Assembly (NCBI RefSeq): GCF_988242995.1
Contig: NZ_OZ547043.1
Length of the DNA stretch: 64,000 nucleotides
Strand: one strand, 5' to 3'
How positions within the stretch are numbered: position 1 is the stretch's first letter; every line of letters begins with the position of its first letter. Below, one piece after another: positions 34,814-64,000 of this stretch. A program made the translations under genes and the position numbers. The notes under the pieces were generated by a model that saw only the letters and a program-made list of their open reading frames with translations, was not told where the DNA came from and made no database searches.

Positions 34814-34890
34814 GCGCCCTTAGCTCAGTTGGATAGAGCAACGACCTTCTAAGTCGTGGGCCGCAGGTTCGAATCCTGCAGGGCGCGCCA
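34814..34890 (+). tRNA. argU: tRNA-Arg (UCU anticodon)
   Basis: 77-nt sequence with acceptor stem GCGCCCU/AGGGCGC, anticodon loop cuUCUaa, T-loop GGTTCGAATCC, 3' CCA; integrase gene immediately downstream. Confidence 0.9.
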
Positions 34891-34905: not shown

Positions 34906-36069
34906 TTACGCCTTCTTTATATCCTCCATAATTCCAGAGTGGGACATATTTGGGACATTATCACCAAAAATGTCGTCTATTTTCCTCGCATGCTCTGTCA
35001 AATGATTAGGCGCAAGGTGAGCATACCTACGAACCATTTCTATGGACTCCCATCCGCCCATTTCCTGAAGCACTGATAATGGGACGCCTGACTGAATCAG
35101 CCAGCTTGCCCAGGTGTGTCTGAGGTCATGGAAACGGAAATCTTCAATTCCTGCACGACGACAAGCTGATAGCCATGATGTCTTGCTGTCGATGCGCATC
35201 TTCCTGACCGCAGGCGTTGATGTTCCATCTGCTCGCTTAGCCGCCTTGGTATGTACAAACACCCATTTGTGATGCTTGCCTATTTGATCACGCAACACTT
35301 TACAGGCGGTATCGTTCAGCGCCACACCAATGGCGCGGTTTGATTTGCTCTCTTCTGGATTCACCCAGGCAACTCGTCGCTGCATGTCGATTTGTTGCCA
35401 TTCCAGATTTATGATGTTCGACTTTCTCAGACCAGTTGCCAGCGCAAACTTGACGACAGATTTCAGTGGTTCGGGGCACTCATCAATAAGGCGTTTTGCT
35501 TCCTCCTTTTCCAGCCATCTGACTCGCTTGTTTCTGACCGCTGGTATCTTGATGACAGGCGCTTTTTCCAGCCACTTCCAGTCGCGTTCTGCAGCACGGA
35601 GAATGGCCTTTATCATGGCAAGATGCTTTGCCTTTGTCTGAGTTGATACTGGCTTTGGTTCATAAACAGGCAGTTCTTTACCTTTCCTGATGGCGGCCTG
35701 AACTTTCTGTTTCCATATTTCTTTCGTCTTTCTGTTATGCATTCTGCTTACAGCAGAGTAAATCTTTGCCTCCGAGATATCTTTAAGCCTTATACCCTCA
35801 AAATGTTCAAGCCAGAACTCAATCCGGCTTTTATCTGAATCGAGAGATTTTTTATCAGCTTTTTCCTCAAGCCATCTTAGGCAGGCCTCTTCAAAAGTGA
35901 CATCAGGTAAATCCCCTAGCTTTTCTACTCGCCAGAGTTCTGCTTTTCGCTTGTCGTGCAACTCCTGAGCTTGCCGCTTGTCCTTTGTGCCAAGAGATTC
36001 CTTAATTCGTTTCCCGCCCGGGAGCGAATACGAGGCGTACCATATTTCATTTCTGCGGAAGAGTGACAT
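34906..36069 (-). CDS. intD: tyrosine recombinase, DLP12-type prophage integrase
   Basis: 387-aa ORF with C-terminal R...HxxR...Y catalytic region (HDLRHTWAS...RYAHL); adjacent to argU. Confidence 0.85.
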
Positions 36070-36296
36070 TTTCTTTCCTCTGTTATGCCATCACCCGCGC
36101 TCACTTGGACAGTATGCAGCGGAGACTGAAGCGCCGCAATGCAGGCTTGCCGTGTTGTGAGGTAAGGAGATTTTGGCTTGGTTGGATCTTTACGTGTTGC
36201 CTGTAGGCGGCCTGTTCGTATCCAGTTGGTGGCGGTTGGTCTGGATATCTTAAGAAACTGACAGGCCTCATCGAGTGTGAGGCTGTATGATTCCAT
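35925..36296 (-). CDS. xisD: putative excisionase
   Basis: ORF overlapping the 5' end of int, with an HTH-like segment ([26 protein letters not shown]); exact ends uncertain. Confidence 0.45.
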
Positions 36297-36546
36297 GGTT
36301 ACCTCTGCTTTTTGAACGCATGTCACGTAACTTCTTAATGTGTTCTGCCGTTTCGATCTCTTCTGCTATCCGATCTGCATCAGCTTTATTCACAGGTTCA
36401 AAGTCATGATTAAAGCGGAACATGCTGGCGATACATGTTCTGCCTTTTCGGATGTAGTGAACTTTGTTGTGGGTAGAACGCAGGATTTTGCAGGGAGTGC
36501 CGTGGTGGTCGACGTACCAGGTGTTAGGAAAAATGATTCTGAACAT
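36268..36546 (-). CDS. hypothetical phage protein
   Basis: 92-aa ORF co-oriented with early-left genes; no recognised motif. Confidence 0.4.
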   Translation of the reverse strand: MFRIIFPNTWYVDHHGTPCKILRSTHNKVHYIRKGRTCIASMFRFNHDFEPVNKADADRIAEEIETAEHIKKLRDMRSKSRGNHGIIQPHTR

Positions 36547-36593
36547 TTTTACACCTCAGTTGGACGATGTTGAAATTTGCTGCTTTGAGGCCA

Positions 36594-36812
36594 TCACAGT
36601 CCCCATTGTTTGTTCTTAAGTTCGATCTCCTCCTGGCAACTTGCACAAGTCCGACAACCCTGAACAGCCAGGCGTCTTCGCTCATCTATCGGATCGCCAC
36701 ACTCACAACAATGAGTTGCGGATACAGTCTGGTAGTTCAGACGACGCATTTTTATTGCTGTATTGCGCTGTAATTCTTCGATTTCTGATGCTGAATCAAT
36801 GATGTCTGCCAT
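36594..36812 (-). CDS. TraR/DksA-family C4 zinc-finger protein
   Basis: 72-aa ORF with CxxC...CxxC pattern (CCECGDPID...CRTCASC) typical of phage TraR-like proteins. Confidence 0.6.
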   Translation of the reverse strand: MADIIDSASEIEELQRNTAIKMRRLNYQTVSATHCCECGDPIDERRRLAVQGCRTCASCQEEIELKNKQWGL

Positions 36813-36861
36813 CTTTCATTAATCCCTGAATTGTTGGTTAATACGCTTGAGGGTAAATGCG

Positions 36862-36889
36862 AATAATAAAAAAGGAGCCTGTAGCTCCC
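36862..36889 (-). terminator. rho-independent terminator on the minus strand
   Basis: hairpin ggagcctgtagctcc preceded on the plus strand by an A-run (a T-run on the transcribed strand). Confidence 0.4.
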
Positions 36890-36910
36890 TGATGATTTTG
36901 CTTTTCATGT

Positions 36911-37192
36911 TCACCGTTCCTTAAAGACGCCGTTCAACATGCCGATCGCCAGGCTTAAATGAGTCGGTGTGAATCCCATCAGCGTTACCGTTTCGCGGTG
37001 CTTCTTTAGTACGCTACGGCAAATGTCATCGACGTTTTTATCCGGAAAATGCTGTCTGGCTTTTTTGATTTCAGAATTAGCCAGACGGGCAATGCTGCGA
37101 AGGGCGTTTTCTTGCTGAGGTGTCATTGAACAAGCCCCATGTCGGCAAGCATAAGCACACAGAATATGAAGCCCGCTGCCAGAAAAATGCAT
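36911..37192 (-). CDS. hypothetical phage protein
   Basis: 93-aa ORF in the early-left operon; start uncertain. Confidence 0.4.
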   Translation of the reverse strand: MHFSGSGLHILCAYACRHGACSMTPQQENALRSIARLANSEIKKARQHFPDKNVDDICRSVLKKHRETVTLMGFTPTHLSLAIGMLNGVFKER

Positions 37193-37202
37193 TCAGTGGT
37201 TG

Positions 37203-37394
37203 TCATACCTGGTCTCTCTCATCTGCTTCTGCTTTCGCCACCATCATTTCCAGCTTTTGTGAAAGGGATGTGGCTAACGTATGAAATTCTTCGTCTGTTT
37301 CTACTGGTATTGGCACAAACCTGACTCCAATTTGAGCAAGGCTATGTGCCATCTCAATACTCGTTCTTAACTCAACAGGAGATGCTTTGTGCAT
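37203..37394 (-). CDS. hypothetical small phage protein
   Basis: 63-aa acidic ORF, co-oriented with and just upstream of exo. Confidence 0.35.
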   Translation of the reverse strand: MHKASPVELRTSIEMAHSLAQIGVRFVPIPVETDEEFHTLATSLSQKLEMMVAKAEADERDQV

Positions 37395-37545
37395 ACCGCC
37401 TCCCGTTTATTATTTATCTTCTCAGCCAGCCGCTGTGCTTTCAGTGGATTTCTGATAACAGAAAGGCCGGGAAATACCCAGCCTCGCTTTGTAACGGAGT
37501 AGACGAAAGTGATCGCGCCTACCCGGATATTATCGTGAGGATGCG

Positions 37546-38226
37546 TCATCGCCATTGCTCCCCAAATACAAAACCAATTTCAGCCAGTGCCTCGTCCATT
37601 TTTTCGATGAACTCCGGCACCATCTCGTCAAAACTCGCCATGTACTTTTCATTCCGCTCAATCACGACATAATGCAGGCCTTCACGCTTCATGCGCGGGT
37701 CATAGTTGGCAAAGTACCAGGCATCTTTTCGCGTCACCCACATGCTGTACTGCACCTGGGCCATGTAAGCCGATTTTATTGCCTCGAAACCACCGAGCCG
37801 GAATTTCATGAAATCCCGGGAGGTAAACGGGCATTTCAGTTCAAGGCCGTTGCCGTCACTGCATAAACCATCGGGAGAGCAGGCGGTGCGCATACTTTCG
37901 TCGCGATAGATGATCGGGGATTCAGTAATATTCACGCCGGAAGTGAATTCAAACAGGGTTCTGGCGTCGTTCTCGTACTGTTTTCCCCAGGCCAGCGCCT
38001 TAGCATTAACTTCCGGAGCCACACCGGTGCAAACCTCAGCCAGCAGGGTGTGGAAGTAGGACATTTTCATGTCAGGCCACTTCTTTCCTGAGCGGGGCTT
38101 TGCTATCACGTTGTGAACTTCTGAAGCGGTGATGACGCCGAGCCGTAATTTGTGCCATGCATCATCCCCCTGTTCGACAGCTCTCACGTCGATCCCGGTA
38201 CGCTGCAGGATAATGTCCGGTATCAT
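37546..38226 (-). CDS. exo: lambda exonuclease (Red-alpha)
   Basis: 226-aa ORF near-identical to recalled lambda Exo ([30 protein letters not shown]...). Confidence 0.9.
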
Positions 38227-39008
38227 GCTGCCACCTTCTGCTCAGTGGCTTTCTGTTTCAGGAATCCAAGAGCTTTCACTGCTTCGGCCTGTGTCAGTTC
38301 TGACGATGCGCGAATGTCGCGGCGAAATATCTGGGAACAGAGCGGCAATAAGTCGTCATCCCATGTTTTATCCAGGGCGATCAGCAGAGTGTTAATCTCC
38401 TGCATGGTTTCATCGTTAACCGGAGTGATGTCGCGTTCTGGCTGACGTTCTGCAGTGTATGCAGTATTTTCGACAATGCGCTCGGCTTCATCCTTGTCAT
38501 AGATACCAGCAAATCCGAAGGCCAGACGGGCACACTGAATCATGGCTTTATGCCGTAACATCCGTTTGGGATGCGACTGCCACGGCCCCGTGATTTCTCT
38601 GCCTTCGCGGGTTTTGAATGGTTCGCGGCGGCATTCATCCATCCATTCGGTAACGCAGATCGGATGATTACGGTCCTTGCGGTAAATCCGGCATGTACAG
38701 GATTCATTGTCCTGCTCAAAGTCCATGCCATCAAACTGCTGGTTTTCATTGATGATGCGGGACCAGCCATCAACGCCCACCACCGGAACAATGCCGTTCT
38801 GCTTATCAGGGAAGGCGTAAATTTCTTTCGTCCACGGATTAAGGCCGTACTGGTTGGCGACGATCAGCAATGCGATGAACTGCGCATCGCTGGCATCACC
38901 TTTAAATGCCGTCTGGCGAAGAGTGGTGATCAGTTCCTGTGGGTCGACAGAATCCATGCCGACACGTTCAGCCAGCTTCCCTGCCAGCGTTGCGAGTGCT
39001 GTACTCAT
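38223..39008 (-). CDS. bet: recombination protein Bet (Red-beta)
   Basis: 261-aa ORF near-identical to recalled lambda Bet. Confidence 0.9.
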
Positions 39009-39013
39009 CCGTT

Positions 39014-39310
39014 TTATACCTCTGAATCAATATCAACCTGGTGGTGAGCAATGGTTTCAACCATGTACCGGATGTGTTCTGCCATGCGCTCCTGAAACTC
39101 AACATCGTCATCAAACGCACGGGTAATGGCTTTTTTGCTGGCCCCGTGGCGTTGCAAATGATCGATGCATAGCGATTCAAACAGGTGCTGGGGCAGGCCT
39201 TTTTCCATGTCGTCTGCCAGTTCTGCCTCTTTCTCTTCACGGGCGATCTGCTGGTAGTAACGCGCCCAGCTCTGAGCCTCAAGACGATCCTGAATGTAAT
39301 AAGCGTTCAT
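39014..39310 (-). CDS. gam: host RecBCD inhibitor Gam
   Basis: 98-aa ORF matching recalled lambda Gam short form ([17 protein letters not shown]...). Confidence 0.85.
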
Positions 39311-39385
39311 GGCTGAACTCCTGAAAATGGCTGTGAAAATATCGCCCGCGAAATGCCAGGCTGATTAGGAAAACAGGAAAGGGGA

Positions 39386-39796
39386 TTAGCGATTCAGGCC
39401 GTTAGCGCGTCCGTCGAGAAAAACTTCCACGAGCAAATCACGGGTATAAGTGCGCTCGATGCCGCGATGCAGATAAAGCCGTCCGCGTAAATTACCTGAT
39501 GCAGTCCAGGTACCATCTTTGTGTTTGACCAGCATTCCTGGCATGATCGCACCTCGATTAACGGTCTGCGTTCCGTAATGTTGATGAACCATAAAAACTC
39601 CTGCCCGTAAGCTGGGCTGCTGAACATATAGAGACTTCTGCGCGTATTCAGGCGGTGGATGGCCGCCGGTTGTCATAACTAAGTCGCCTCGTTGAAGCGA
39701 CTGAGGTATGAAGTGTTGAGTTGATTTCAGCTGGTCACACCGACGTTCACGCGTCCGTTTCACCCCTCGCACTCCCCGAAGCCTGCTGAAATTCAA
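39386..39796 (-). CDS. hypothetical early-left protein with Arg-rich N-terminus, function unknown
   Basis: 136-aa ORF between gam and the putative pL/oL region, where lambda carries kil-cIII-ral-sieB-N; no match to recalled lambda N, Kil or CIII. Confidence 0.4.
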
Positions 39797-39849
39797 ACTG
39801 CGGATCTAAGCGGTCATCGCAACGGTGAATCAGGTAGTTGCCGTATCGT

Positions 39850-39946
39850 TGTGTTGTTGCGATGAACTTATTTAAAACTATAGTTGTTTTATCGTCAACA
39901 ACAAAAGTTGTTTTATTGGTTGTTTTAGATATAACTGGTTGTATTT
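39850..39946. promoter_or_regulatory. putative left operator/promoter (oL/pL) region
   Basis: several GTTGTT/AACAAC motifs including the palindrome AACAACaaaaGTTGTT (39897-39912), the same half-site seen between cI and cro. Confidence 0.35.
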
Positions 39947-40019
39947 AGGATGGATTTATTTTGTGACTTGAATCGCATAGCGATAACTGAAGCGAGGTTA
40001 TGGTGGTTTTTTTAACGGT

Positions 40020-40048
40020 GTGTGTGATGAGGGGAGGGCAAAAGAAAA
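40020..40048 (-). terminator. rho-independent terminator downstream of cI
   Basis: hairpin cccggcacggtgaccggg; on the minus strand it is followed by TTTTCTTTT. Confidence 0.45.
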
Positions 40049-40187
40049 CCCGGCACGGTGACCGGGATTCTTACGCCGTTAGGTAAAGATATTATTGCGG
40101 TGGCTTAATATTACTACCTAGAGCAAAGATAGGAATTAGTTCTTTACTGAATGAGCACAATGCCCAGTTGATAATTTTTAATTGGTA

Positions 40188-40877
40188 CTACCCATGCTTC
40201 CTATATGTCTGCGGCATGCTCCCAATAACCTTACCGAAGATGAACACCCGGTTCATCTCGTCTTTCTCGATCGGGTCCCACGGTGAGTAGCTTTTGTTAT
40301 CAGAGATGACCAGCAGCTTATCCTTCATCATTTGCAGGCGCTTTACATGGGCTGTGTCGTCGTACAGAAACGCATAGATACCATCACCGTCGAAAGATTT
40401 AACTGTGATATCAACGAACAGCAGATCACCTGGTTCGATCGTTCCTGACATGCTGTCACCACGCACGTTAATGATGCGGATATTTTCCGCCTTCCTACCA
40501 TCGAACATGTGACGAGCATCGTCAAACGAGTACTCAACCGAGCGTAGAACTTCTACAAACTCACGGTTGATGACTCCCGGCCCAGCACTGACTTCTATAT
40601 CAAGAACGTCAATCTTGAAGTATTTGGAATGGCTGACAGTTGATTGTATTGGTTGCACTGTACTGTCTGACATATTTCCAACGCCAGAAGATAACCATTC
40701 TGCGCGCACACCCAAAGCGTTCGCGATCTCCACGATTTTAGTTGTTTGATTAGCTTTCCCTGTTTCGATTTTCTGAATAGCAGCCTGGCTAACCCCGACC
40801 AAATCCCCAAGCGCCTTTTGTGTAAGGCCTCGCGCTAATCTGGCTTCTTTAAGTCTTTCTGAGAGTGTTGTTTTCAT
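40188..40877 (-). CDS. cI: prophage repressor (CI-like): N-terminal HTH, C-terminal LexA-type S24 peptidase domain
   Basis: 229 aa from Met MKTTLSERLKEARLARGLTQKALG...; self-cleavage-type GDSM motif; divergent from cro. Confidence 0.8.
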   Translation of the reverse strand: MKTTLSERLKEARLARGLTQKALGDLVGVSQAAIQKIETGKANQTTKIVEIANALGVRAEWLSSGVGNMSDSTVQPIQSTVSHSKYFKIDVLDIEVSAGPGVINREFVEVLRSVEYSFDDARHMFDGRKAENIRIINVRGDSMSGTIEPGDLLFVDITVKSFDGDGIYAFLYDDTAHVKRLQMMKDKLLVISDNKSYSPWDPIEKDEMNRVFIFGKVIGSMPQTYRKHG

Positions 40878-40885
40878 AGTCCAAA

Positions 40886-40943
40886 TGTACAACCAAGGTT
40901 TTATTCCATCAAACGAAAATGGTTGTTGACTAAAAACAACCAT
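40886..40943. promoter_or_regulatory. putative right operator (oR) / pRM-pR region
   Basis: palindromes AACCAAGGTT (40891-40900) and ATGGTTGTT-N7-AACAACCAT (40919-40943) in the 104-bp cI-cro divergent intergenic. Confidence 0.5.
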
Positions 40944-40981
40944 AGTTTTAATCTTGATTCAAATTAACCACGGAGGTTGTT

Positions 40982-41212
40982 ATGAACCCAGCTATCAAAA
41001 CAGCGATCAATATCGTTGGTTCACAAAAGAAACTGGGCGCTGCTTGCGAAGTTTCACAGCAGGCCGTCTATAAGTGGCTTCACAACAAAGCAAAGGTATC
41101 CCCTGAACATGTCGGCAGCATTGTTACGGCTACTGGTGGAGTAGTGAAGGCATACCAGATTCGCCCGGATCTTCCGAAGTTGTTTCCACACACCGAAAAG
41201 AACGCAGCTTAA
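40982..41212 (+). CDS. cro: Cro-like HTH regulator
   Basis: 76-aa ORF with HTH (KKLGAACEVSQQAVYKWL), divergent from cI. Confidence 0.7.
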   Translation: MNPAIKTAINIVGSQKKLGAACEVSQQAVYKWLHNKAKVSPEHVGSIVTATGGVVKAYQIRPDLPKLFPHTEKNAA

Positions 41213-41281
41213 ATTTCCATTTCACGCTCTTTAACAATAAGCAATCAACTTAACAGTCAATTCAAACTAAAGGAGTCAATT

Positions 41282-41821
41282 ATGCAACCACTTACATACC
41301 AACAGACTAGCGGATTTAGCCCGACTGCGGTGATAAATCGTTCTCAAACAAAACAGGTGCCAGGCCACGAAAAAATCCGTGATGCCGTCCGCGCCTGGTC
41401 GGCTGTAGATAATCAGGATGTCGTTGCCACACTCATTGTGAATGAGTATCGGGAGCAGGGCGGCGGCACCATCGATTTCCCTGATGATGTCAGCCGTGCA
41501 CGCCAGAAGCTGTTCCGCTTCCTCGATAACAAATTCGATTCTGAAAAATACCGAAATAACGTGCGTGAACTGACCCCGGCAATTCTGGCGGTACTACCGC
41601 TGGAATATCGCGGTTACCTGGTTGAGCAGGATAGCTTCATGGCTAGGTTGGCTGAAATGGAAAAGGAACTCAGTGAGGCAAAACAGGCTGTCATTCTCAA
41701 CGCACCACGCCACCAGAAACTGAAGGAAATTAGTGAAGGTATTGTGTCGATGTTTCGTGTGGACCCAGATCTGGCTGGTCCATTGATGGCGATGGTTACT
41801 ACCATGCTGGGGGCGATATGA
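41282..41821 (+). CDS. CII-like regulatory protein (family assignment tentative)
   Basis: 179-aa ORF between cro and O, the position of cII; resembles recalled phage CP76-type proteins. Confidence 0.45.
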   Translation: MQPLTYQQTSGFSPTAVINRSQTKQVPGHEKIRDAVRAWSAVDNQDVVATLIVNEYREQGGGTIDFPDDVSRARQKLFRFLDNKFDSEKYRNNVRELTPAILAVLPLEYRGYLVEQDSFMARLAEMEKELSEAKQAVILNAPRHQKLKEISEGIVSMFRVDPDLAGPLMAMVTTMLGAI

Positions 41822-41907
41822 CAGGTTCAGAAATGGCGAAAGCCGGTCTGCTGGAACAGAACCGACTTTCAGGTGCAAATCGTAACACACTCATTGCGGG
41901 AGGAATT

Positions 41908-42837
41908 ATGGCAAACACTGCTGAGATATTCAATTTTCCAGTGCCGGATGCGGCACAAAAGGAGCCGCGCGTGGCAGATCTCGATGATGGTTATACGCGC
42001 ATTGCAAATGAGTTGCTGGAAGCTGTGATGCTGGCCGGATTAACACAGCACCAGCTTCTGGTCTTTCTGGCTGTCATGCGCAAAACATATGGCTTTAATA
42101 AAAAACTGGATTGGGTTAGCAACGAGCAACTTTCCGAATTAACCGGGATATTGCCGCACAAGTGTTCTGCTGCAAAAAGTGTTCTGGTAAAGCGTGGGAT
42201 TTTTATTCAGAGCGGGCGGAATACCGGCATTAATAATGTGGTCAGTGAATGGTCAACATTACCCGAATCAGGTAAGAGAAATAAAGTTTACCTGAAAGAG
42301 GTAAATTTACCTGAATCAGGTAAAAAAAGTTTACCCAAATCAGGTAAAGGCGTTTACCCGAATCAGGTAAACACAAAAGACAAACTAACAAAAGACAATA
42401 TAAAACCTTTTTCGTCCGAGAATTCTGGCGAATCCTCTGACCAACCAGAAAACGATCTTCCTGTGGTGAAACCGGATGCTGCAATTCAGAGCGGCAGCAA
42501 GTGGGGGACAGCAGAAGACCTGACCGCCGCAGAGTGGATGTTTGACATGGTGAAGACCATCGCGCCATCAGCCAGAAAACCGAATTTTGCAGGGTGGGCT
42601 AACGATATCCGCCTGATGCGTGAACGTGACGGACGTAACCACCGCGACATGTGCGTGCTGTTCCGCTGGGCATGCCAGGACAACTTCTGGTCCGGTAACG
42701 TGCTAAGTCCGGCCAAACTCCGCGACAAGTGGACCCAGCTCGAAATCAACCGAAACAAGCAACAGGCTGGCGTGACAGCCGGCAAACCAAAACTCGACCT
42801 GACGAACACTGACTGGATTTACGGGGTGGAGCTATGA
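41908..42837 (+). CDS. O: replication initiator O
   Basis: lambda O-like N-terminus (..NFPVP..VADLDDGY..) from ATG 41908 with GGGAGG RBS; contains ori iterons; track start 41818 also possible. Confidence 0.8.
   Translation: MANTAEIFNFPVPDAAQKEPRVADLDDGYTRIANELLEAVMLAGLTQHQLLVFLAVMRKTYGFNKKLDWVSNEQLSELTGILPHKCSAAKSVLVKRGIFIQSGRNTGINNVVSEWSTLPESGKRNKVYLKEVNLPESGKKSLPKSGKGVYPNQVNTKDKLTKDNIKPFSSENSGESSDQPENDLPVVKPDAAIQSGSKWGTAEDLTAAEWMFDMVKTIAPSARKPNFAGWANDIRLMRERDGRNHRDMCVLFRWACQDNFWSGNVLSPAKLRDKWTQLEINRNKQQAGVTAGKPKLDLTNTDWIYGVEL
42259..42371. repeat. replication origin iterons inside O
   Basis: five direct repeats of about 19 bp, TTTACC(C/T)GAAtCAGGTAAA, each internally palindromic. Confidence 0.6.
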
Positions 42838-43535
42838 AAAACATCGCCGCACAGATGGTTAACTTTGACTGTGAGCAGATGCGCCGGATCGCCAACAACA
42901 TGCCGGAACAGTACGACGAAAAGCCACAGGTACAGCAGGTAGCGCAGATCATCAACGGTGTGTTCAGCCAGTTACTGGCAACTTTCCCGGCGAGCCTGGC
43001 TAACCGTGACCAGAATGAACTGAACGAAATCCGCCGCCAGTGGGTTCTGGCTTTCCGGGAAAACGGGATCACCACAATGGAACAGGTTAACGCTGGAATG
43101 CGCGTAGCCCGTCGGCAGAATCGACCATTCCTGCCATCACCCGGGCAGTTTGTCGCCTGGTGCCGGGAAGAAGCATCTGTTAACGCCGGGCTGCCAAACG
43201 TCAGCGAGCTGGTTGATATGGTTTACGAGTATTGCCGGAAGCGTGGCCTGTATCCGGATGCAGAGTCTTATCCGTGGAAATCGAACGCGCATTACTGGTT
43301 GGTTACCAACTTGTACCAGAACATGCGGGCCAATGCGCTGACTGACGCGGAATTACGGCGCAAGGCTGCCGATGAACTGACCTGTATGACAGCGCGAATT
43401 AACCGTGGTGAGACGATACCTGAACCAGTAAAACAACTTCCTGTTATGGGCGGTAGACCTCTAAATCGTGCACAGGCTCTGGCGAAGATCGCAGAAATTA
43501 AAGCTAAGTTTGGACTGAAAGGATCGATGAAATAG
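42834..43535 (+). CDS. P: replication protein P (DnaB helicase loader)
   Basis: 233-aa ORF near-identical to recalled lambda P. Confidence 0.9.
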   Translation: MKNIAAQMVNFDCEQMRRIANNMPEQYDEKPQVQQVAQIINGVFSQLLATFPASLANRDQNELNEIRRQWVLAFRENGITTMEQVNAGMRVARRQNRPFLPSPGQFVAWCREEASVNAGLPNVSELVDMVYEYCRKRGLYPDAESYPWKSNAHYWLVTNLYQNMRANALTDAELRRKAADELTCMTARINRGETIPEPVKQLPVMGGRPLNRAQALAKIAEIKAKFGLKGSMK

Positions 43536-43774
43536 AGCTAAAATATTAGCTTTAAAATAAAGTATATCTAGCGAATATAATCCAGGACTGGTTGTAATGC
43601 CCGCAATAATTGATTGCGTGAGTAATAAAATTTTTCTTCCATTGTAATCATTTAACCATAAAGTTTATGAGGATATTTTATTTGTGTGTTGATTTTTTTG
43701 TAACGTTCTGTATATTTCGCACCTCTTGTCATACCAGTTATTTTTTTCATTATATTCATAACGTTGATTGAACT

Positions 43775-46700
43775 ATGACCACTGTGAATAAAAAGTTAAA
43801 AAAAACTGCATCTGGCGCGATTACATGGTCAGTAATTGTTACCCAGATATTATCTCCAGTTTCTCTTTCTTTGATTCCGGCAAACAGTTTTGCATCGTCT
43901 GATAATAAAGATGTTACGCAAATTTATGCTAGCGATGAGCGTGCAAATAAAGTGGCCTCATTTGCAGTAAGTGCAGGTCAGAGTCTGGCGAATAATAATG
44001 CAAGTAGTTTTGCTGTAAATACTTTATCAACTCAGGCGACAAAAGAGGTCGTCGATTGGTTGCAACAATATGGCAATGCGCGCATCAAGCTTAATGTCGA
44101 TGATTCTTTTTCCTTGAAGGATTCATCATTCGACTTTTTATATCCATGGCTGGATACTCAGGATTATGTGCTATTCAGTCAGACATCACTACATCGTACT
44201 GATGACCGTAATCAGACCAATATTGGTTTGGGGATTCGTCATTTCACTCCTGATAATGCAATGTTGGGTGCGAATGTTTTCTACGATTATGATTTAAGTC
44301 GCAGCCACTCTCGCGCAGGTTTTGGGGTTGAGTACTGGAGAGATTATTTCAGGTTTGGTGTAAATACCTATTTTGGTTTATCTGACTGGAAGGACAGTCG
44401 GGATATTGATGATTATCTGGAAAGACCCGCAAATGGCTGGGATTTTTCTGCTGAAGGATGGCTACCTGCTTATCCGCAATTAGGGGCATCTATTCAGTTT
44501 GAAAAATATTATGGTAAAAATGTCGGATTATTTGGAAGCGATAATCTGCAGGAAAACCCTTACGCAGTTACTGGGGGAATTTCTTATACACCAGTTCCTC
44601 TGATTAAGTTTTCTGCACAGCATAAGCAAGGACAGAGCAACGTTCACGATACAACCTTTGGTGTTGAGTTTAATTACCGCCCAGGCGTTTCCCTTGCTGA
44701 ACAGCTTAGCAGTGACAATGTTGCAGTTATGCGAGAAGTCCAGAACCGGCGTTATGATTTTGTTGAACGAAATAACAACATTGTTCTGGAGTACAAGAAG
44801 AAGCATGCACTGAAAATCAGCTTACCAGAGTCTGTTCAGGGGGATGGCGAATCAATCATCCCTGTAACACTGACAATCAACAATGCCAGTGGTGGTATCA
44901 AGTCTGTACAGTGGAATGATAGTGTATTCACTGCGGCTGGCGGTAAGATCAGTGGAAATGGCACATCATGGCAGGTCACTTTACCGGCTTATAAAAGCGA
45001 AGGTGTAAATTCGTGGAATGTTGGAGCCACGGTCCAGGATAATAGAGGCAACGTTTCCAACTATGCGGTGATGAATATTAGCGTTATTAATAGTGGTGTC
45101 TCGACAGCGGATTCTTCTTTTATGTTGGATGGAGATTCATCTCCGACGATCTCTGCTGATGGTCAATCCACTCATCCAATAGTATTAAGCCTGAAAGACA
45201 GTAACGGTAAGGCATTAACCGGACTGGCTGATGACATTGAAATGTCAGTGGAATTTACTGCGGATAGCAATAGTGCTCGACAGCGTGAAACGGTAACTGC
45301 CCCGTCATTAGGCGCGGTAGAGGAAATCTCTGCTGGTGTATATCGCTCTGTTCTGACTGCTGGTTCGCAGGCTGGCACAGTACGTGTAACAGCAAAAGTT
45401 CAGGGAAAAACCTTTACTTTGAATATTAAGCAGGCAGCCGTTATTGATAGTGATGTCTCGACAGCGGATTCTTCTTTTACGTTGGATGGTGATTCGTCTC
45501 CGACGATCTCTGCTGATGGTCAATCCACTCATCCAATAGTATTAAGCCTGAAAGACAGTAACGGTAAGGCATTAACCGGACTGGCTGATGACATTGAAAT
45601 GTCAGTGGAATTTACTGCGGATAGCAATAATGCTCGACAGCGTGAAACGGTAACTGCCCCGTCATTAGGCGCGGTAGAGGAAATCTCTGCTGGTGTATAT
45701 CGCTCTGTTCTGACTGCTGGTTCGCAGGCTGGTACGGTACGTGTAACTGCAAAAGTAATGGATAAAACATTTACTCTCAGTATTAAGCAAACAGCAGCAA
45801 CAGAACCTGATTCTGAGGTCAGTGCTGTTTTAACCGCTGCACCAGCAGAACAGGTAGTTGGTTACAATATCAATCTACAACTGGCAGTGAAGGATTCACA
45901 AGGAAATGCAATCACTGGTGATAACACTCTGAGCTTTTATGCTCTTAACCAGGCAGAAGGAGTCGAGTTTGGGGCAGTAACGGAAAAAGACGGTGTCTAT
46001 AGCGCGACAGTAACTTCAAAACGAGCTGGTAAGATTCGGATCGGTGTTAAATCGGGTAGTCACAATTTCTCAGGTATTGAGAAAGAAATCTCCTTTATTG
46101 AAGATCGAACACAGTTCGCATTCTCTCGTATTGAAGCCAGTAAAAATAATGCATTGGCTGACGGCAAACAAAAGAATACGGTGACTGTAAGCCTTGCAGA
46201 TCGTTTCGGCAATGTTGTGCCCGGTTATGCTGTTACGCTGTCCTTACCTGCGGGGGTAACTCAAGTTGGTGGTGAACATGCTGTGTCAACTGACGAAAAC
46301 GGTAATGCTGTTTTTGCGTTAATAAGCTCCACTCCGGGTTCTTACGTGATTAAAGCTCATGCTGGTTCTCAGATGTCTACTGAGTTAACAGTAACCTTTG
46401 CATCAAATATGATCGGAGCTTCACTGTCACTGACGCCTGGAAACAGTAGCTTAATTTCCAATATTCCTGCTAATGGTAAGGATGCTGCGGTATTGAATGT
46501 GCAACTGACAAATACGAATGCGTCGGTCAATGGACAGAAGATTCAGCTCATCACCTCATCTGAAGGATTGTCTGTACCGACAAATATCGTGACTGATTCA
46601 ACAGGGCATGTTTCCGTACCACTTACAACGGTGAGAGCTGGTGAGTATACGGTGGCTGCACGAGTGACTGACGGTTCCCATAGTGTGGAGTCTGGCAGCG

Positions 46701-59363: not shown

Positions 59364-60663
59364 TCTCCCGCATATTTCCAGCATGGCCTTTAATGAGCCG
59401 CTGATGCTTGAACCCGCCTATGCGCGGGTTTTCTTTTGTGCGCTTGCAGGCCAGCTTGGGATCAGCCGCCTGACGGATGCGGTGTCCGGCGACAGCCTGA
59501 CTGCCCAGGAGGCACCCGCGACGCTGGCATTATCCGGTGATGATGACGGACCACGACAGGCCCGCAGTTATCAGGTCATGAACGGCATCGCCGTGCTGCC
59601 GGTGTCCGGCACGCTGGTCAGCCGGACGCGGGCGCTGCAGCCGTACTCGGGGATGACCGGTTACAACGGCATTATCGCCCGTCTGCAACAGGCTGCCAGC
59701 GACCCGATGGTGGACGGCATTCTGCTCGATATGGACACGCCAGGCGGAATGGTGGCGGGGGCATTTGACTGCGCTGACATCATCGCCCGTGTGCGTGACA
59801 TAAAACCGGTATGGGCGCTGGCCAACGACATGAACTGCAGTGCAGGTCAGCTGCTTGCCAGTGCCGCCTCCCGGCGTCTGGTCACGCAGACCGCCCGGAC
59901 AGGCTCCATCGGCGTCATGATGGCTCACAGTAATTACGGTGCTGCCCTGGAGAAACAGGGCGTGGAAATCACGCTGATTTACAGCGGCAGCCATAAGGTG
60001 GATGGCAATCCTTACAGCCATCTTCCGGATGACGTCCGGGAGACACTGCAGTCCCGGATGGACGCAACCCGCCGGATGTTTGCGCAGAAGGTGTCGGCAT
60101 ATACCGGCCTGTCTGTGCAGGCTGTGCTGGATACCGAGGCTGCAGTGTACAGCGGTCAGGAGGCCATTGATGCCGGACTGGCTGATGAACTTGTTAACAG
60201 CACCGATGCGATCACCGTCATGCGTGATGCACTGGATGCACATAAATCCCGTCTCTCAGGAGGGCGAATGACCAAAGAGACTCAATCAACAACTGTTTCA
60301 GCCACCGCTTCGCAGGCTGACGTTACTGAGGTGGTGCCAGCGACGGAGGGCGAAAACGCCAGCGCGGCGCAGCCGGACGTGAACGCGCAGATCACCGCAG
60401 CGGTTGCGGCAGAAAACAGCCGCATTATGGGGATCCTCAACTGTGAGGAGGCTCACGGACGCGAAGAACAGGCGCGCGTTCTGGCAGAAACCCCCGGTAT
60501 GACCGTGGAAACGGCCCGCCGCATTCTGGCCGCAGCACCACAGAGTGCACAGGCGCGCAGTGACACTGCGCTGGATCGTCTGATGCAGGGGGCACCGGCA
60601 CCGCTGGCTGCAGGTAACCCGGCATCTGATGCCGTTAACGATTTGCTGAACACACCAGTGTAA
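59344..60663 (+). CDS. C: head maturation protease C, with in-frame nested scaffold Nu3
   Basis: 439 aa from GTG 59344 (VTAELRNLPHISSMAFNEPLML...); the track ORF from 59230 is an in-frame upstream extension overlapping B. Confidence 0.85.
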
Positions 60664-60672
60664 GGGATGTTT

Positions 60673-61005
60673 ATGACGAGCAAAGAAACCTTTACCCATT
60701 ACCAGCCGCTGGGCAACAGTGACCCGGCTCATACCGCAACCGCGCCCGGCGGATTGAGTGCGAAAGCGCCTGCAATGACCCCGCTGATGCTGGACACCTC
60801 CACCCGTAAGCTGGTTGCGTGGGATGGCACCACCGACGGTGCTGCCGTTGGCATTCTGGCGGTTGCTGCTGACCAGACCAGCACCACGCTGACGTTCTAC
60901 AAGTCCGGCACGTTCCGTTATGAGGATGTGCTCTGGCCGGAGGCTGCCAGCGACGAGACGAAAAAACGGACCGCGTTTGCCGGAACGGCAATCAGCATCG
61001 TTTAA
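60673..61005 (+). CDS. D: head decoration protein D
   Basis: 110 aa from Met [17 protein letters not shown]...; matches recalled lambda gpD. Confidence 0.85.
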
Positions 61006-61060
61006 CCTTACCCTTCATCACTAAAGGCCGCCTGTGCGGCTTTTTTTACGGGATTTTTTT

Positions 61061-61315
61061 ATGTCGATGTACACAACCGCCCAGCTGCTGGCGGCAAATG
61101 AGCAGAAATTTAAGTTTGATCCGCTGTTTCTGCGTCTCTTTTTCCGTGAGAGCTATCCCTTCACCACGGAGAAAGTCTATCTCTCACAAATTCCGGGGCT
61201 GGTAAACATGGCGCTGTACGTTTCGCCGATTGTTTCCGGTGAGGTTATCCGCTCCCGTGGCGGCTCCACCTCTGAATTTACGCCGGGATATGTCAAGCCG
61301 AAGCACTTAGCATGA
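61061..61315 (+). pseudogene. E: major capsid protein E, 5' fragment only
   Basis: 84 codons matching the recalled lambda gpE N-terminus (MSMYTTAQLLAANEQKFKFD...GYVKPKH), then an immediate stop; lambda gpE is about 341 aa. Confidence 0.8.
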
Positions 61316-61468
61316 CTTTCTGAGGCTTTCGTGTAGTTGCTGGTTTTTACACTTAATCTTTTGATAATAAAGAATAAGTTTATCTGGTGCTTTCACTGAA
61401 TTTTCCTCGTTATCTGTGTGTTGCAATCATCTCTGTATTGCAGCTTGTATTGCTTTTTGGGGCTAAAA

Positions 61469-62704
61469 ATGGCTGGCGAGAACAAACTGAGCGACAAAGC
61501 GCTTAAAGGATATCTGGGGAAACCCAGAGAAAAGCAGATCACCATTGCTGATGGAAAGGGGCTTTCTATTCGTGTGAGTACTAAAGGGGCTGTGAGCTTT
61601 GTTTTCTTCTACAGGTTAGCAGGTGGCCGGGCTGCTCCGGTCTGGCTAACGTTGGGTAAATATCCTGATATGTCACTCAAACAGGCAAGGGAAAAGCGCG
61701 ACGAGTGCCGTGGTTGGTTGGCTGACAAACGTGATCCGCGTATCCAGATTAAGATTCAGGCTGAAGAACGCTTAAAGCCGGTTACAGTGGAGGATGCACT
61801 AAATTACTGGTATGAAAATTACTGTAAGGTGCGTCGTAAAACTCATGCTGTAACGCTTGGCAGATTTCGAAAGCATATCTTTCCCTATATCGGTCATTTG
61901 CCCGTAAATGACACTCACCTATATGAATGGCTGGACTGTTTTGACCGAATTAAACGTAATGCACCAGTTATGGCGGCGTATGTTTTTTCTGACACTAAAT
62001 TAGCTCTTCGTTTTTGTCGGGTACGCCAGTACGCGACGTGTGATGCTTTAAAGGATTTGCGCATGAGTGATGTGGGGCAGATTGCAGGTAAGCGGGATCG
62101 GGTTCTGGATGAAGCCGAACTCGGCCAGCTCTGGAAGGCAATTTTTGTCGAGCCTGATTTAAAACTAATGTCTGAATACACGCGAAAAATGTTTGTGCTT
62201 TGTACAGTATTTGGATGTCGAATGAGTGAAGCCCGATTATCAGAATGGAGCGAATGGGATCTCGAAAGTTGGGTTTGGACTGTACCAAAAGATCACTCAA
62301 AAACTGGTGTTGAAATCGTCAGACCAGTACCTGAAATTCTACGACAGTGGGTAACGGATGTTCACGAAGAGACAAAACATACTGGTTATGTGCTGGGAAG
62401 TCTGCGAATTAGAGAAAGCGTAAGCAAGATTGGGGGGAAAATCGGTAAACGTTTGGGCCATGAAAAACAATGGTCACTACACGACCTTAGAAGAACGCTA
62501 TCTACTCATCTAAGTGATCTCGGTGTTGAATTTTATGTAGTAGAACAACTGTTAGGCCATGCGCTACCTGGCGTGGCAGGTGTTTACAACCGGAGTAAGT
62601 TTATGGCTAAAAAACTGGATGCTCTGGAACTCTGGACTACATATCTCAATAGCATCGCAGCTGCTGATTCAAAAGTGACAATCCTCAAACAAAAGGTTGG
62701 TTAA
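61469..62704 (+). CDS. P4-family tyrosine integrase
   Basis: 411 aa from ATG 61469; N-terminal integrase arm-binding-like region and C-terminal catalytic motifs (HDLRRT...GH...Y). Confidence 0.8.
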   Translation: MAGENKLSDKALKGYLGKPREKQITIADGKGLSIRVSTKGAVSFVFFYRLAGGRAAPVWLTLGKYPDMSLKQAREKRDECRGWLADKRDPRIQIKIQAEERLKPVTVEDALNYWYENYCKVRRKTHAVTLGRFRKHIFPYIGHLPVNDTHLYEWLDCFDRIKRNAPVMAAYVFSDTKLALRFCRVRQYATCDALKDLRMSDVGQIAGKRDRVLDEAELGQLWKAIFVEPDLKLMSEYTRKMFVLCTVFGCRMSEARLSEWSEWDLESWVWTVPKDHSKTGVEIVRPVPEILRQWVTDVHEETKHTGYVLGSLRIRESVSKIGGKIGKRLGHEKQWSLHDLRRTLSTHLSDLGVEFYVVEQLLGHALPGVAGVYNRSKFMAKKLDALELWTTYLNSIAAADSKVTILKQKVG

Positions 62705-62705
62705 C

Positions 62706-62933
62706 ATGAAAAAAATGGCAATTGTTGATAAAAAGGGTCTGGAGTACATTCCTAACATTGACCGAATGATCCGTGAGAAAGAATGTCGGGAGCTAACCAC
62801 TCTTGCGAACAGCACACGCTGGAAGCTGGAGAAGGAAGGAAAATTTCCTAAGCGGATCAAGATTGGTTCCACTGCTGTTGCATATCGTCTTTCAGAAGTG
62901 CAGGCATGGATTCGAGGTGAGTGGGTAGTTTAA
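62706..62933 (+). CDS. AlpA-family phage transcriptional regulator / excisionase-like protein
   Basis: 75-aa ORF with HTH (LANSTRWKLEKEGKFPKRIKIG...AYRLSEVQAWI) directly after int. Confidence 0.65.
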   Translation: MKKMAIVDKKGLEYIPNIDRMIREKECRELTTLANSTRWKLEKEGKFPKRIKIGSTAVAYRLSEVQAWIRGEWVV

Positions 62934-62960
62934 ATTATCTCAGAATAAAATATTATGAAT

Positions 62961-62992
62961 TACTGATTTGAGAATTTGTACTCAAATCAGTA
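62961..62992. terminator. bidirectional hairpin between the alpA-like gene and the convergent membrane-protein gene
   Basis: perfect 12-bp inverted repeat tactgatttgag / ctcaaatcagta around an 8-nt loop. Confidence 0.5.
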
Positions 62993-63002
62993 ATAACATT
63001 CT

Positions 63003-63539
63003 TTATAAGAGATTAAATCCAAATAAAGAGTAATCATATACCGGGGTGCATTGCATCCCACTGAATATGCTGATGTTTTTTTCTGTTTCTATCCTTTTTT
63101 CAATAAGTTGTTGTATATTTTTACAGTACAATTTGTGTGTGATGTTATTATCGTAAGCCTGATATAGCAACGTCAATGTTGATGCTATGAAACATGCAGA
63201 AAGAAAATGAACTAGTACATGTGAGCGTTTTTTGGTTGTCCATGATGCATTCGCTTGTGAAATATAAATCATTCTGAGAATGATAATGATGATAGACAGT
63301 AACAGACCACTCAATAAAATAAGTATTGGGTTTGCGTATTTAATTAATGGTTGAGAGCAAAAAACTATTATAGCTCCTGTGACTGCGTATGAGAAAAAGG
63401 AGTAATTAAACTTCTTACTCCTTCTCTCAAGTATTTTAATTTCATCTTGTGTGGGGGTTTTAGATGCCTCTAATATAAGTTTATTAAATGTTTCTGTTAT
63501 CTTGTTTTTTGTGTTTGTGGCTATTTTTTTTAGATTCAT
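63003..63539 (-). CDS. hypothetical AT-rich membrane protein with two predicted transmembrane helices
   Basis: 178-aa ORF with GGGAG RBS 6 nt upstream of the ATG; hydrophobic stretches AVTGAIIVFCSQPLI and ILILLSGLLLSIIIIILRMIYI; no recognised family. Confidence 0.5.
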   Translation of the reverse strand: MNLKKIATNTKNKITETFNKLILEASKTPTQDEIKILERRSKKFNYSFFSYAVTGAIIVFCSQPLIKYANPILILLSGLLLSIIIIILRMIYISQANASWTTKKRSHVLVHFLSACFIASTLTLLYQAYDNNITHKLYCKNIQQLIEKRIETEKNISIFSGMQCTPVYDYSLFGFNLL

Positions 63540-63889
63540 AGCATTCTAACTCCCTTAACTTATTTATTACTTTCTCTTTATGATAAGAGAGGGGAATGAC
63601 TTGGTAAAGTGATTTGTCATTAATAATGATAATCCTTGCGATAAATATTTCTGCAAGTTATTTACCTGTTTGTTGCTATCTTGTTAAGCGTTGGGTGTGG
63701 TTTATGTTTGGAGCGACTTTATTTAATCGTGATTTTATGGATTTATATTTATATCCTGTAAGATAAGCGCATGTTAGTTCAGGAGTAGTGTCAGATAAAA
63801 TTATTCGGAGTAGAACTACCTTTTCTGTTTATTGCCAGTATTTACATAGCAATGCGCCGTAGTTACTCACATCACGGCGCTGATACTAA

Positions 63890-64000
63890 TTATTCAGATT
63901 CTTTGGCTTTACGCCGCTGGAGTTCTTCACGAGCGACGGCTACGAGTTGCCCGATTTCCTCCGCTGCCTTGATACCGATTTGTTCGACCTTAGCTAAGGC
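63890..64000 (-). CDS. 3' end of an unidentified gene running off the window
   Basis: minus-strand frame encodes ...ALAKVEQIGIKAAEEIGQLVAVAREELQRRKAKESE then a stop at 63890-63892; higher GC than the surrounding AT-rich DNA. Confidence 0.3.
   Translation of the reverse strand, partial: ALAKVEQIGIKAAEEIGQLVAVAREELQRRKAKESE

Follow-up and report, generated by a model that had tools for sequence, protein, structure and literature searches.

A helper-embedded PICI of the E:Phage_cap_E:80 group in the split capsid gene of an argU lambdoid prophage

The founding helper-embedded phage-inducible chromosomal island (HE-PICI), Eco567.11capE of E. coli NRG857c, is an 11-kb island that disrupts a capsid gene of the lambda E type, has a 10-bp identity block at its site and carries a capsid gene of its own (Tommasini, Mageeney & Williams, NAR Genom Bioinform 2023; PMC10111431). 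Here we analyse a 64,000-nt stretch of contig NZ_OZ547043.1 (the whole of which is called the window), in which capsid gene E of a lambdoid prophage at argU breaks off and a P4-type integrase gene begins. The window very likely ends 2.7 kb into a PICI-type satellite of ~11 kb that is integrated site-specifically in codons 79-82 of E. The feature is an HE-PICI of the published E:Phage_cap_E:80 group and is therefore already known; because its configuration, its site, its core sequence and its tRNA-Arg helper type have all been catalogued, the assignment is a correct call and not a discovery.

Several properties of this group have been described (PMC10111431). The insertion site, named E:Phage_cap_E:80, has 201 instances, and the integrase clade is one that targets the late genes of prophages. 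A doubled motif specific to attP, tgTGTATTGCantgTGTATTGCa, is found twice in the same orientation, one copy lying 81+/-2 bp upstream of the attP centre and the other 132+/-2 bp downstream of it, and 11capE has a cos similarity to its helper of 258 bp at 90%. In the supplement, the core variants include agccgaagca (as in the window) and aacccaagca (as in NRG857c), together with cases in which the identity block is only the short 'aagca'. The elements sit in prophages at the icd, tRNA-Arg, proP, thrS and ybhC neighbourhoods, and the tRNA-Arg helpers at this site are exemplified by Eco112.58.R, which houses Eco112.11. When NRG857c is treated with mitomycin C, the composite excises and replicates, and the satellite excises later, at ~2 h; both excisions are precise, and their order was shown by quantitative PCR and deep sequencing. 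A literature search found no later papers that add experimental work on HE-PICIs.

The split capsid gene and its attachment core

The satellite is visible in the window only as its left 2.7 kb, which comprises attL and the first genes. The window was compared with loci from FDAARGOS_1268 (L001), AST215 (L002), MLI106K3 (L003) and NRG857c (L004, fetched only as far as gene G); an annotated AST215 locus (L005) was used to map the prophage arm. The junction was inspected closely in the three of these genomes that have a split E (FDAARGOS_1268, AST215 and NRG857c), and counts were made in 5426 complete E. coli genomes. The features of the left end are as follows.

61061..61315, + strand: 5' fragment of E, the major capsid gene (from translation)
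61296..61305, + strand: attL core AGCCGAAGCA, 10 bp, within E codons 79-82 (from alignment of attL, attR and attB)
61434..61453, + strand: doubled motif TGTATTGC-n4-TGTATTGC, putative arm-type site (from sequence; direct-repeat family D4)
61469..62704, + strand: satellite tyrosine integrase, 411 aa (Pfam; phrog_1)
62706..62933, + strand: AlpA-family excisionase/regulator, 75 aa (phrog_2790; PDB 8C3T, 'AlpA family phage regulatory protein')
62959..62994, no strand assigned: hairpin with a perfect 14-bp stem, between the convergent alpA and ORF178 (terminator-like scan; inverted repeat I19)
63003..63539, - strand: ORF178, predicted membrane protein of 178 aa, an orphan accessory gene of the AT-rich 'dynamic zone'
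63890..64000, - strand: 3' part of a YlcI/YnfO-family gene of 101 aa, which runs off the window (its translation matches the C-terminus of the FDAARGOS_1268 protein)

Gene E starts at ATG 61061 and proceeds through 82 native codons to ...GYVKPKH, after which it acquires a foreign Leu-Ala and a stop (TGA, 61313-61315) that are read from satellite DNA. Translation thus bears out the original prediction, which was made from the letters of the window, that the head order cos-Nu1-A-W-B-C-D-E is cut within E after 84 codons; the start that it gave, 61034, is the upstream GTG of a mechanically called open reading frame (ORF). As it also stated, a P4-family integrase gene lies about 150 bp on (the ATG at 61469 is 153 bp past the stop) and is followed by an AlpA-like gene, assignments with which Pfam and phrog_2790 agree, and then by AT-rich DNA (31.7% GC at 62934-63886). 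The integrase gene is co-oriented with the helper late operon, and int, alpA and the head operon all lie on the + strand. The junction was said to have neither a tRNA gene nor an attachment repeat. The former holds, argU at 34814-34890 being the only tRNA gene in the window, but the latter does not: the search of the junction for direct repeats yields the 10-bp AGCCGAAGCA at attL and, in the relatives, at attR. Since the window ends before this partner, which is ~11 kb to the right, the repeat could not have been seen from the window alone. The remark that the lack of a tRNA target is unusual for a P4-type integrase was fair, yet the published clade that targets late genes explains it (PMC10111431).

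The junction is best understood by aligning the three kinds of site. At attL, in the window and in FDAARGOS_1268 and AST215, the sequence reads ..GGGATATGTCA AGCCGAAGCA CTTAGCATG..; at attR, ~11 kb to the right in FDAARGOS_1268 and AST215, it reads ..TTGACTCATGT AGCCGAAGCA TGAGGTGAATCC..; and at the empty attB, within the intact E of MLI106K3, it reads ..GGGATATGTCA AGCCGAAGCA TGAGGTGAATCC... In FDAARGOS_1268 the exact core is present only twice, at the two att sites, and each of the relatives inspected has a perfect core on either side. MLI106K3 has the same argU prophage, 99.4% identical to that of the window up to 61305, with an uninterrupted E of 341 aa and without int or alpA. Its alignment to the window ends with the final base of the core, 61305, and alignments to sister prophages that end exactly there are what site-specific insertion predicts.

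The missing part of E is found on the far side of the element. In all three split-E genomes, where RefSeq labels the 5' fragment 'major capsid protein, missing C-terminus', the 3' part resumes in frame right after ~11 kb of inserted DNA; in FDAARGOS_1268 the fragment labelled 'missing N-terminus' is about 11.3 kb past its partner and is followed by FI, FII, Z, U, V, G, T, H, M, L, K, I and J. AST215 has the same layout, with gene J annotated as frameshifted, and NRG857c has the split E and the downstream genes through to the gene G region. When window positions 61061-61305 are fused to the sequence that follows attR in FDAARGOS_1268, an open E of 341 aa is obtained; it is identical to the intact E of MLI106K3 at 337 of 342 aligned symbols (stop included), 5 being different. 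Intact E matches Pfam Phage_cap_E, with residues 5-339 placed on model positions 1-328. The attP sequence offers no 3' replacement for E, and E does not continue in another frame of the window.

The E'-int junction (61150-61520, at least 80% coverage) is present in 172 of the 5426 genomes, about 3.2%, and so is neither specific to one strain nor a sequencing artefact; the int-alpA segment is present in 174-178. The closeness of these counts indicates that nearly every copy of the integrase sits in an E gene. By megablast, 66 genomes match the full 3.1 kb of 60900-64000 at 99.5-99.9% identity, the best whole-query match being FDAARGOS_1268. Taken together, these comparisons establish the junction as a site-specific insertion into codons 79-82 of E; deletion, frameshift and the native right arm of the prophage are all rejected.

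The core itself varies through synonymous changes in E, being AGCCGAAGCA in the window and AACCCAAGCA in NRG857c, where the copies are at L004 12827-12836 and 23904-23913. Each genome has a single variant at both attL and attR, so that the attP core of the satellite matches the allele of its current helper. Integration of the satellite into its own capsid gene was also considered and rejected: the equivalent site there is AGCCGAAAAG, of which only the first 7 of 10 bases match AGCCGAAGCA.

The satellite in the window and in its relatives

The integrase contains Arm-DNA-bind_3, Phage_int_SAM_3/Phage_int_M and Phage_integrase domains, which is the P4-type architecture. It is identical to the 11capE integrase of NRG857c at 408 of 411 residues, the AlpA proteins are identical at 75 of 75, and the DNA of int and alpA together is 99.3% identical, a degree of similarity that places the integrase, as judged by sequence, in the 11capE clade. 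The doubled motif at the left end begins 131 bp right of the core centre (published, 132+/-2), and its D4 partner near attR (L001 31612-31635) stops 81 bp left of the core centre (published, 81+/-2); doubled TGTATTGC motifs therefore lie at fixed distances on either side of attP. Over the visible 2695 bp, the satellite is 99.93% identical to the element of FDAARGOS_1268 and 98.0% to that of NRG857c (blastn).

Beyond alpA, the hairpin at 62959-62994 is a candidate bidirectional terminator; if it functions as such, late transcription modified by Q would need to pass through it. ORF178 is the only accessory gene inside the window. It has three hydrophobic segments and no PHROG, PADLOC, NCBIfam or significant Pfam match, the best Pfam hit being a marginal one to DUF443 (E = 0.0011), and a search of 5.8 billion proteins returned no homologues beyond the E. 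coli copies. ORF178 is confined to this E. coli satellite lineage. Its product is identical to the NRG857c copy at 157 of 178 residues (88%), whereas the integrases of the same two elements are 99% identical, and ORF178 has therefore either diverged fast or been swapped by recombination. The neighbouring YlcI/YnfO gene, in its full-length FDAARGOS_1268 copy, matches NCBIfam NF041551 and phrog_6522.

The whole element can be followed in the three split-E relatives. The insert of ~11 kb begins with int and alpA, continues with the orphan membrane ORF and the YlcI/YnfO gene (both on the reverse strand), and has in its middle an icd-like gene, small ORFs, a DUF4222 gene, a primase gene (phrog_864) and an SSB gene. 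A major capsid protein of the lambda E family, 42% identical to helper E, and a decoration protein, 38% identical to helper D, come next, followed by a 127-aa AlpA-family protein, a copy of cos and variable cargo at the right end. The int, alpA, replication, E-like and D-like genes share the direction of the helper late operon. Neither tail nor lysis genes are found in these three elements, nor is a Bro-N protein found in their dynamic zones. From its size and organisation the insert is a Gram-negative PICI; the PICI organisation of four zones, namely integration with AlpA, dynamic/Bro, replication with primase and SSB, and late with captured late genes, is complete in the three relatives, and of these zones the window shows the first and the beginning of the second.

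The cos copy is 258 bp long and 89.9% identical to the helper cos (window 54897-55154 against L001 29362-29619, blastn), so the published likeness of 258 bp and 90% is reproduced with the helper of the window. The copied segment spans cosN to the first Nu1 codons, which is the interval of lambda cosB. In its cosN, GGGCGTCAGGCG (L001 29393-29404), 5 of 12 positions differ from the GGGCGGCGACCT of the resident helper; this cosN is identical in the three inspected satellites even though the remainder of the cos region is strongly diverged in AST215. The sequence GGGCGTCAGGCG was found in only 76 E. coli genomes, and among the matches listed, the ones checked are a few kb away from the satellite integrase gene. 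The idea that the satellite cosN is a unique oddity was weakened by the cultured lambdoid phage PhiR46_1, whose cosN is a third variant, GGGCGGAAGGCG, to which GGGCGTCAGGCG is closer.

Just upstream of this cos, after the capsid and decoration genes, is the second AlpA-family gene (L001 28953-29336). Its 127-aa product, a winged helix-turn-helix protein, matches phrog_2790 over its full length, and a PDB sequence search at E<=0.01 returned AlpA (8C3T) alone and no Rpp. It could be an excisionase that is expressed late or a factor that binds cos.

The cargo at the right end varies (L001 29840-31556; L002 11761-13265). FDAARGOS_1268 and NRG857c have a DUF262 protein, which matches PADLOC NsnA (2e-59) and PD-T4-2_A (7e-39), and a HEPN protein with a weak match to PD-T4-2_B; from these profiles, an anti-phage pair is plausible. 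AST215 instead has a small 'tail assembly protein', a 228-aa hypothetical protein and a DUF3892 gene. In the whole FDAARGOS_1268 element, Rfam gives only sub-threshold matches to the MicX small RNA; the best, at L001 29766-29859 between the satellite cos and the HEPN gene, scores 31 bits (E = 8.5e-4) where the gathering score is 75, and is probably due to chance or to a terminator-like hairpin.

The satellite phage P4 has its integration site in a tRNA-Leu gene, is dependent on P2 and carries genes for Sid, Psu and Delta. The element of the window and its relatives resembles P4 in the arm-binding, SAM-like and catalytic domains of its integrase and in having AlpA-family and icd-like genes and a primase; it departs from P4 in that its structural genes are E-like and D-like and its cos is of the lambda type. 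With the capsid-forming PICIs (cf-PICIs) it has in common a major capsid protein of its own. As described, however, cf-PICIs encode all of the proteins for capsid production and DNA packaging, whereas only a major capsid and a decoration protein are detected in the three relatives, and this type of element relies on the cos machinery of its helper.

EcCICFT073 and other Gram-negative PICIs are similar in size (~11 kb), in the progression from int-alpA through primase/replication to a late zone (Fillol-Salom et al. 2018; 2019, PMC6739421), in being packaged from cos by lambdoid helpers and in having no tail or lysis genes. In contrast to the present element, EcCICFT073 sits next to phoQ, away from its helper, with which it interacts only in trans, and it has no phage cosB, needing Rpp to redirect TerS (PMC6739421, in which the structure of RppC is also described). 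Because the copied cos covers the cosB interval and no Rpp homologue is seen by sequence, packaging probably does not need the Rpp device.

Among the published systems, the nearest is Eco567.11capE. The two share the target codons in E, the 10-bp block, the spacing of the doubled TGTATTGC, the gene order, the presence of a capsid gene of their own and a 258-bp cos mimic that is ~90% identical to the helper cos. They differ in the location of the helper, which is at icd for 11capE and at argU (tRNA-Arg) in the window, in the core (AACCCAAGCA there, AGCCGAAGCA here) and in ORF178, which is only 88% identical. The elements of FDAARGOS_1268 and NRG857c differ in the middle, in the icd-like gene, the neighbouring small genes and the primase, while the left 2.9 kb and the right 5 kb are conserved. 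The variants that separate the window/FDAARGOS_1268 element from that of NRG857c are all present in the published supplement.

The helper prophage at argU

The features of the helper are as follows.

34814..34890, + strand: tRNA-Arg(UCU), argU, the chromosomal attachment site of the prophage, which is the DLP12 site (ARAGORN)
34906..61305, no strand assigned: left arm of the lambdoid helper prophage (from mapping onto AST215 L005 and the ORF list)
54897..55154, + strand: helper cos region, with cosN GGGCGGCGACCT at 54928-54939 (blastn and alignment)

In AST215, intD directly adjoins sequence that matches argU. The left arm contains intD, exo/bet/gam, a cI-like S24 repressor gene, a cro-like gene, O/P, morons, Q, S/R/Rz, bor/iss, cos, Nu1-A-W-B-C-D and the 5' part of E, with a GC content of 56.8% in the head genes, and it is 99.86% identical over 21.9 kb to the AST215 locus L005; AST215 locus L002 matches it over 22 kb at 99.5%.

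Several other genes are present in this arm. An inverse-autotransporter (intimin/invasin-like) gene of 3.9 kb lies between P and ybcN at 43775-47683 (coordinates transferred from the AST215 annotation) and contains two adjacent internal repeats of ~352 bp, at 45082-45432 and 45439-45789. Three genes that are not phage-like lie at 50005-52764, between the antiterminator gene Q and the lysis cassette; they are predicted to encode a lipocalin (minus strand), a YbgA-family protein and an AraC-type helix-turn-helix regulator (52033-52764). The bor/iss lipoprotein gene is at about 54155-54450 on the minus strand.

Proposed mechanism, alternatives and significance

The process that would connect these features begins with the satellite integrase, which recombines the 10-bp core, AGCCGAAGCA, that attP and E have in common. 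Because E is split and the satellite brings no replacement for its 3' part, the prophage is left without a capsid protein until precise excision restores E. As proposed by the 2023 authors, the composite would leave the chromosome after induction and replicate as a single unit; late transcription antiterminated by Q would then pass through Nu1-A-W-B-C-D-E' into int-alpA. This read-through would trigger excision of the satellite, tying its expression to the late phase of the helper and holding back helper capsid production until the satellite has left. Finally, helper terminase would package the satellite, by way of its helper-like cos, into particles with helper tails. The order of excision was measured for the NRG857c copy.

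Several points weigh against this reading. The attR of the window's own copy, the 3' part of its E and its tail genes lie beyond 64000, and we infer this right junction and these tail genes from genomes in which the counterpart of the visible 2.7 kb is 97.8-99.9% identical. The collection has no genome that perfectly matches both the prophage arm and the satellite; the arm is best matched by AST215 and the satellite by FDAARGOS_1268, which makes the distal cargo of this copy uncertain. The difference between the cosN sequences at 5 of 12 positions means that packaging by this particular prophage is not assured, and the type element gave no virions or plaques (PMC10111431).

These last two points, together with the truncated appearance of many HE-PICI helpers (PMC10111431) and the frameshift in tail gene J of AST215, the genome closest to the prophage arm, would fit a fixed and immobile remnant, in which the HE-PICI or its helper has decayed, the split E is the scar of a dead prophage and nothing is regulated. 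We regard this as improbable, given that int and alpA in the window are full-length and nearly identical to the NRG857c copies that have been shown to excise, that the att cores of the relatives are intact and that the left arm of the helper is complete, with int, repressor, replication, Q, lysis and head genes all in place. Furthermore, the distribution of the element among prophages at five chromosomal neighbourhoods (icd, tRNA-Arg, proP, thrS and ybhC; PMC10111431 supplement) argues for recent mobility. There is a very slight chance that a deletion or illegitimate recombination removed distal E and the tail genes, as the original prediction had allowed, and that int and alpA come from an unrelated neighbouring island. 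Within the window this agrees with there being no second copy of the repeat and no visible 3' part of E; it is contradicted by 3 of 3 inspected junction genomes, in which E resumes in frame after ~11 kb, the core is repeated and the tail operon follows (FI through J, with J frameshifted in AST215; as far as gene G in NRG857c), and by the ending of sister-prophage alignments exactly at the last base of the core. The same genomes uphold the other possibility offered there, a second integrative element within the prophage.

It is hardly credible that int and alpA are the prophage's native integration module or right arm, or a P4-family, P2-dependent satellite that landed in E by accident, even though the P4-type domains of the integrase and the adjacent AlpA gene point in that direction. 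The prophage owns an integrase, intD, beside argU, and the sister prophage of MLI106K3 has neither int nor alpA and an intact E. A P4 satellite is at odds with the lambda-type cos and the E-like and D-like genes; sid, psu and delta are not among the annotated genes (no dedicated profile search was made), and Rfam (E<=1) finds no C4 or isrK immunity RNA in the whole FDAARGOS_1268 element. Recurrence of the junction in 172 genomes argues that it is not accidental. A rather different, and unlikely, arrangement would leave the insertion as it is and alter the role of the helper: the satellite may be tuned to the packaging machinery of a phage other than the prophage in which it is housed. The sequence features behind this suggestion are the GGGCGTCAGGCG shared by the three satellites, its difference from the resident cosN, its presence in only 76 genomes and its greater likeness to the cosN of PhiR46_1, together with the satellite's own E/D pair and the second AlpA gene upstream of cos. 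If it were true, the satellite would make a capsid lattice of its own and bear private sticky ends or, alternatively, the prophage would serve as a landing pad and timing device, with packaging performed best by a different lambdoid phage.

The preferred reading, that of a PICI-type satellite integrated site-specifically in E, has parallels in regulated gene integrity, or active lysogeny. Like skin in sigK of B. subtilis and phi10403S in comK of Listeria, the element splits a gene that timed, precise excision restores; unlike in those systems, the split gene belongs to a helper phage, and the timing serves the satellite and not the cell. A satellite inside its helper's capsid gene is a striking instance of the regulation in cis of one mobile element by another: helper heads cannot be built before the exit of the parasite, which is replicated and transcribed as a passenger. 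Recognition of the arrangement keeps such prophages from being mis-annotated as "defective, capsid gene truncated". Carried by about 3% of complete E. coli genomes, the ~11 kb element moves cargo of varying content, with candidate anti-phage systems among it, between lambdoid prophages of E. coli.

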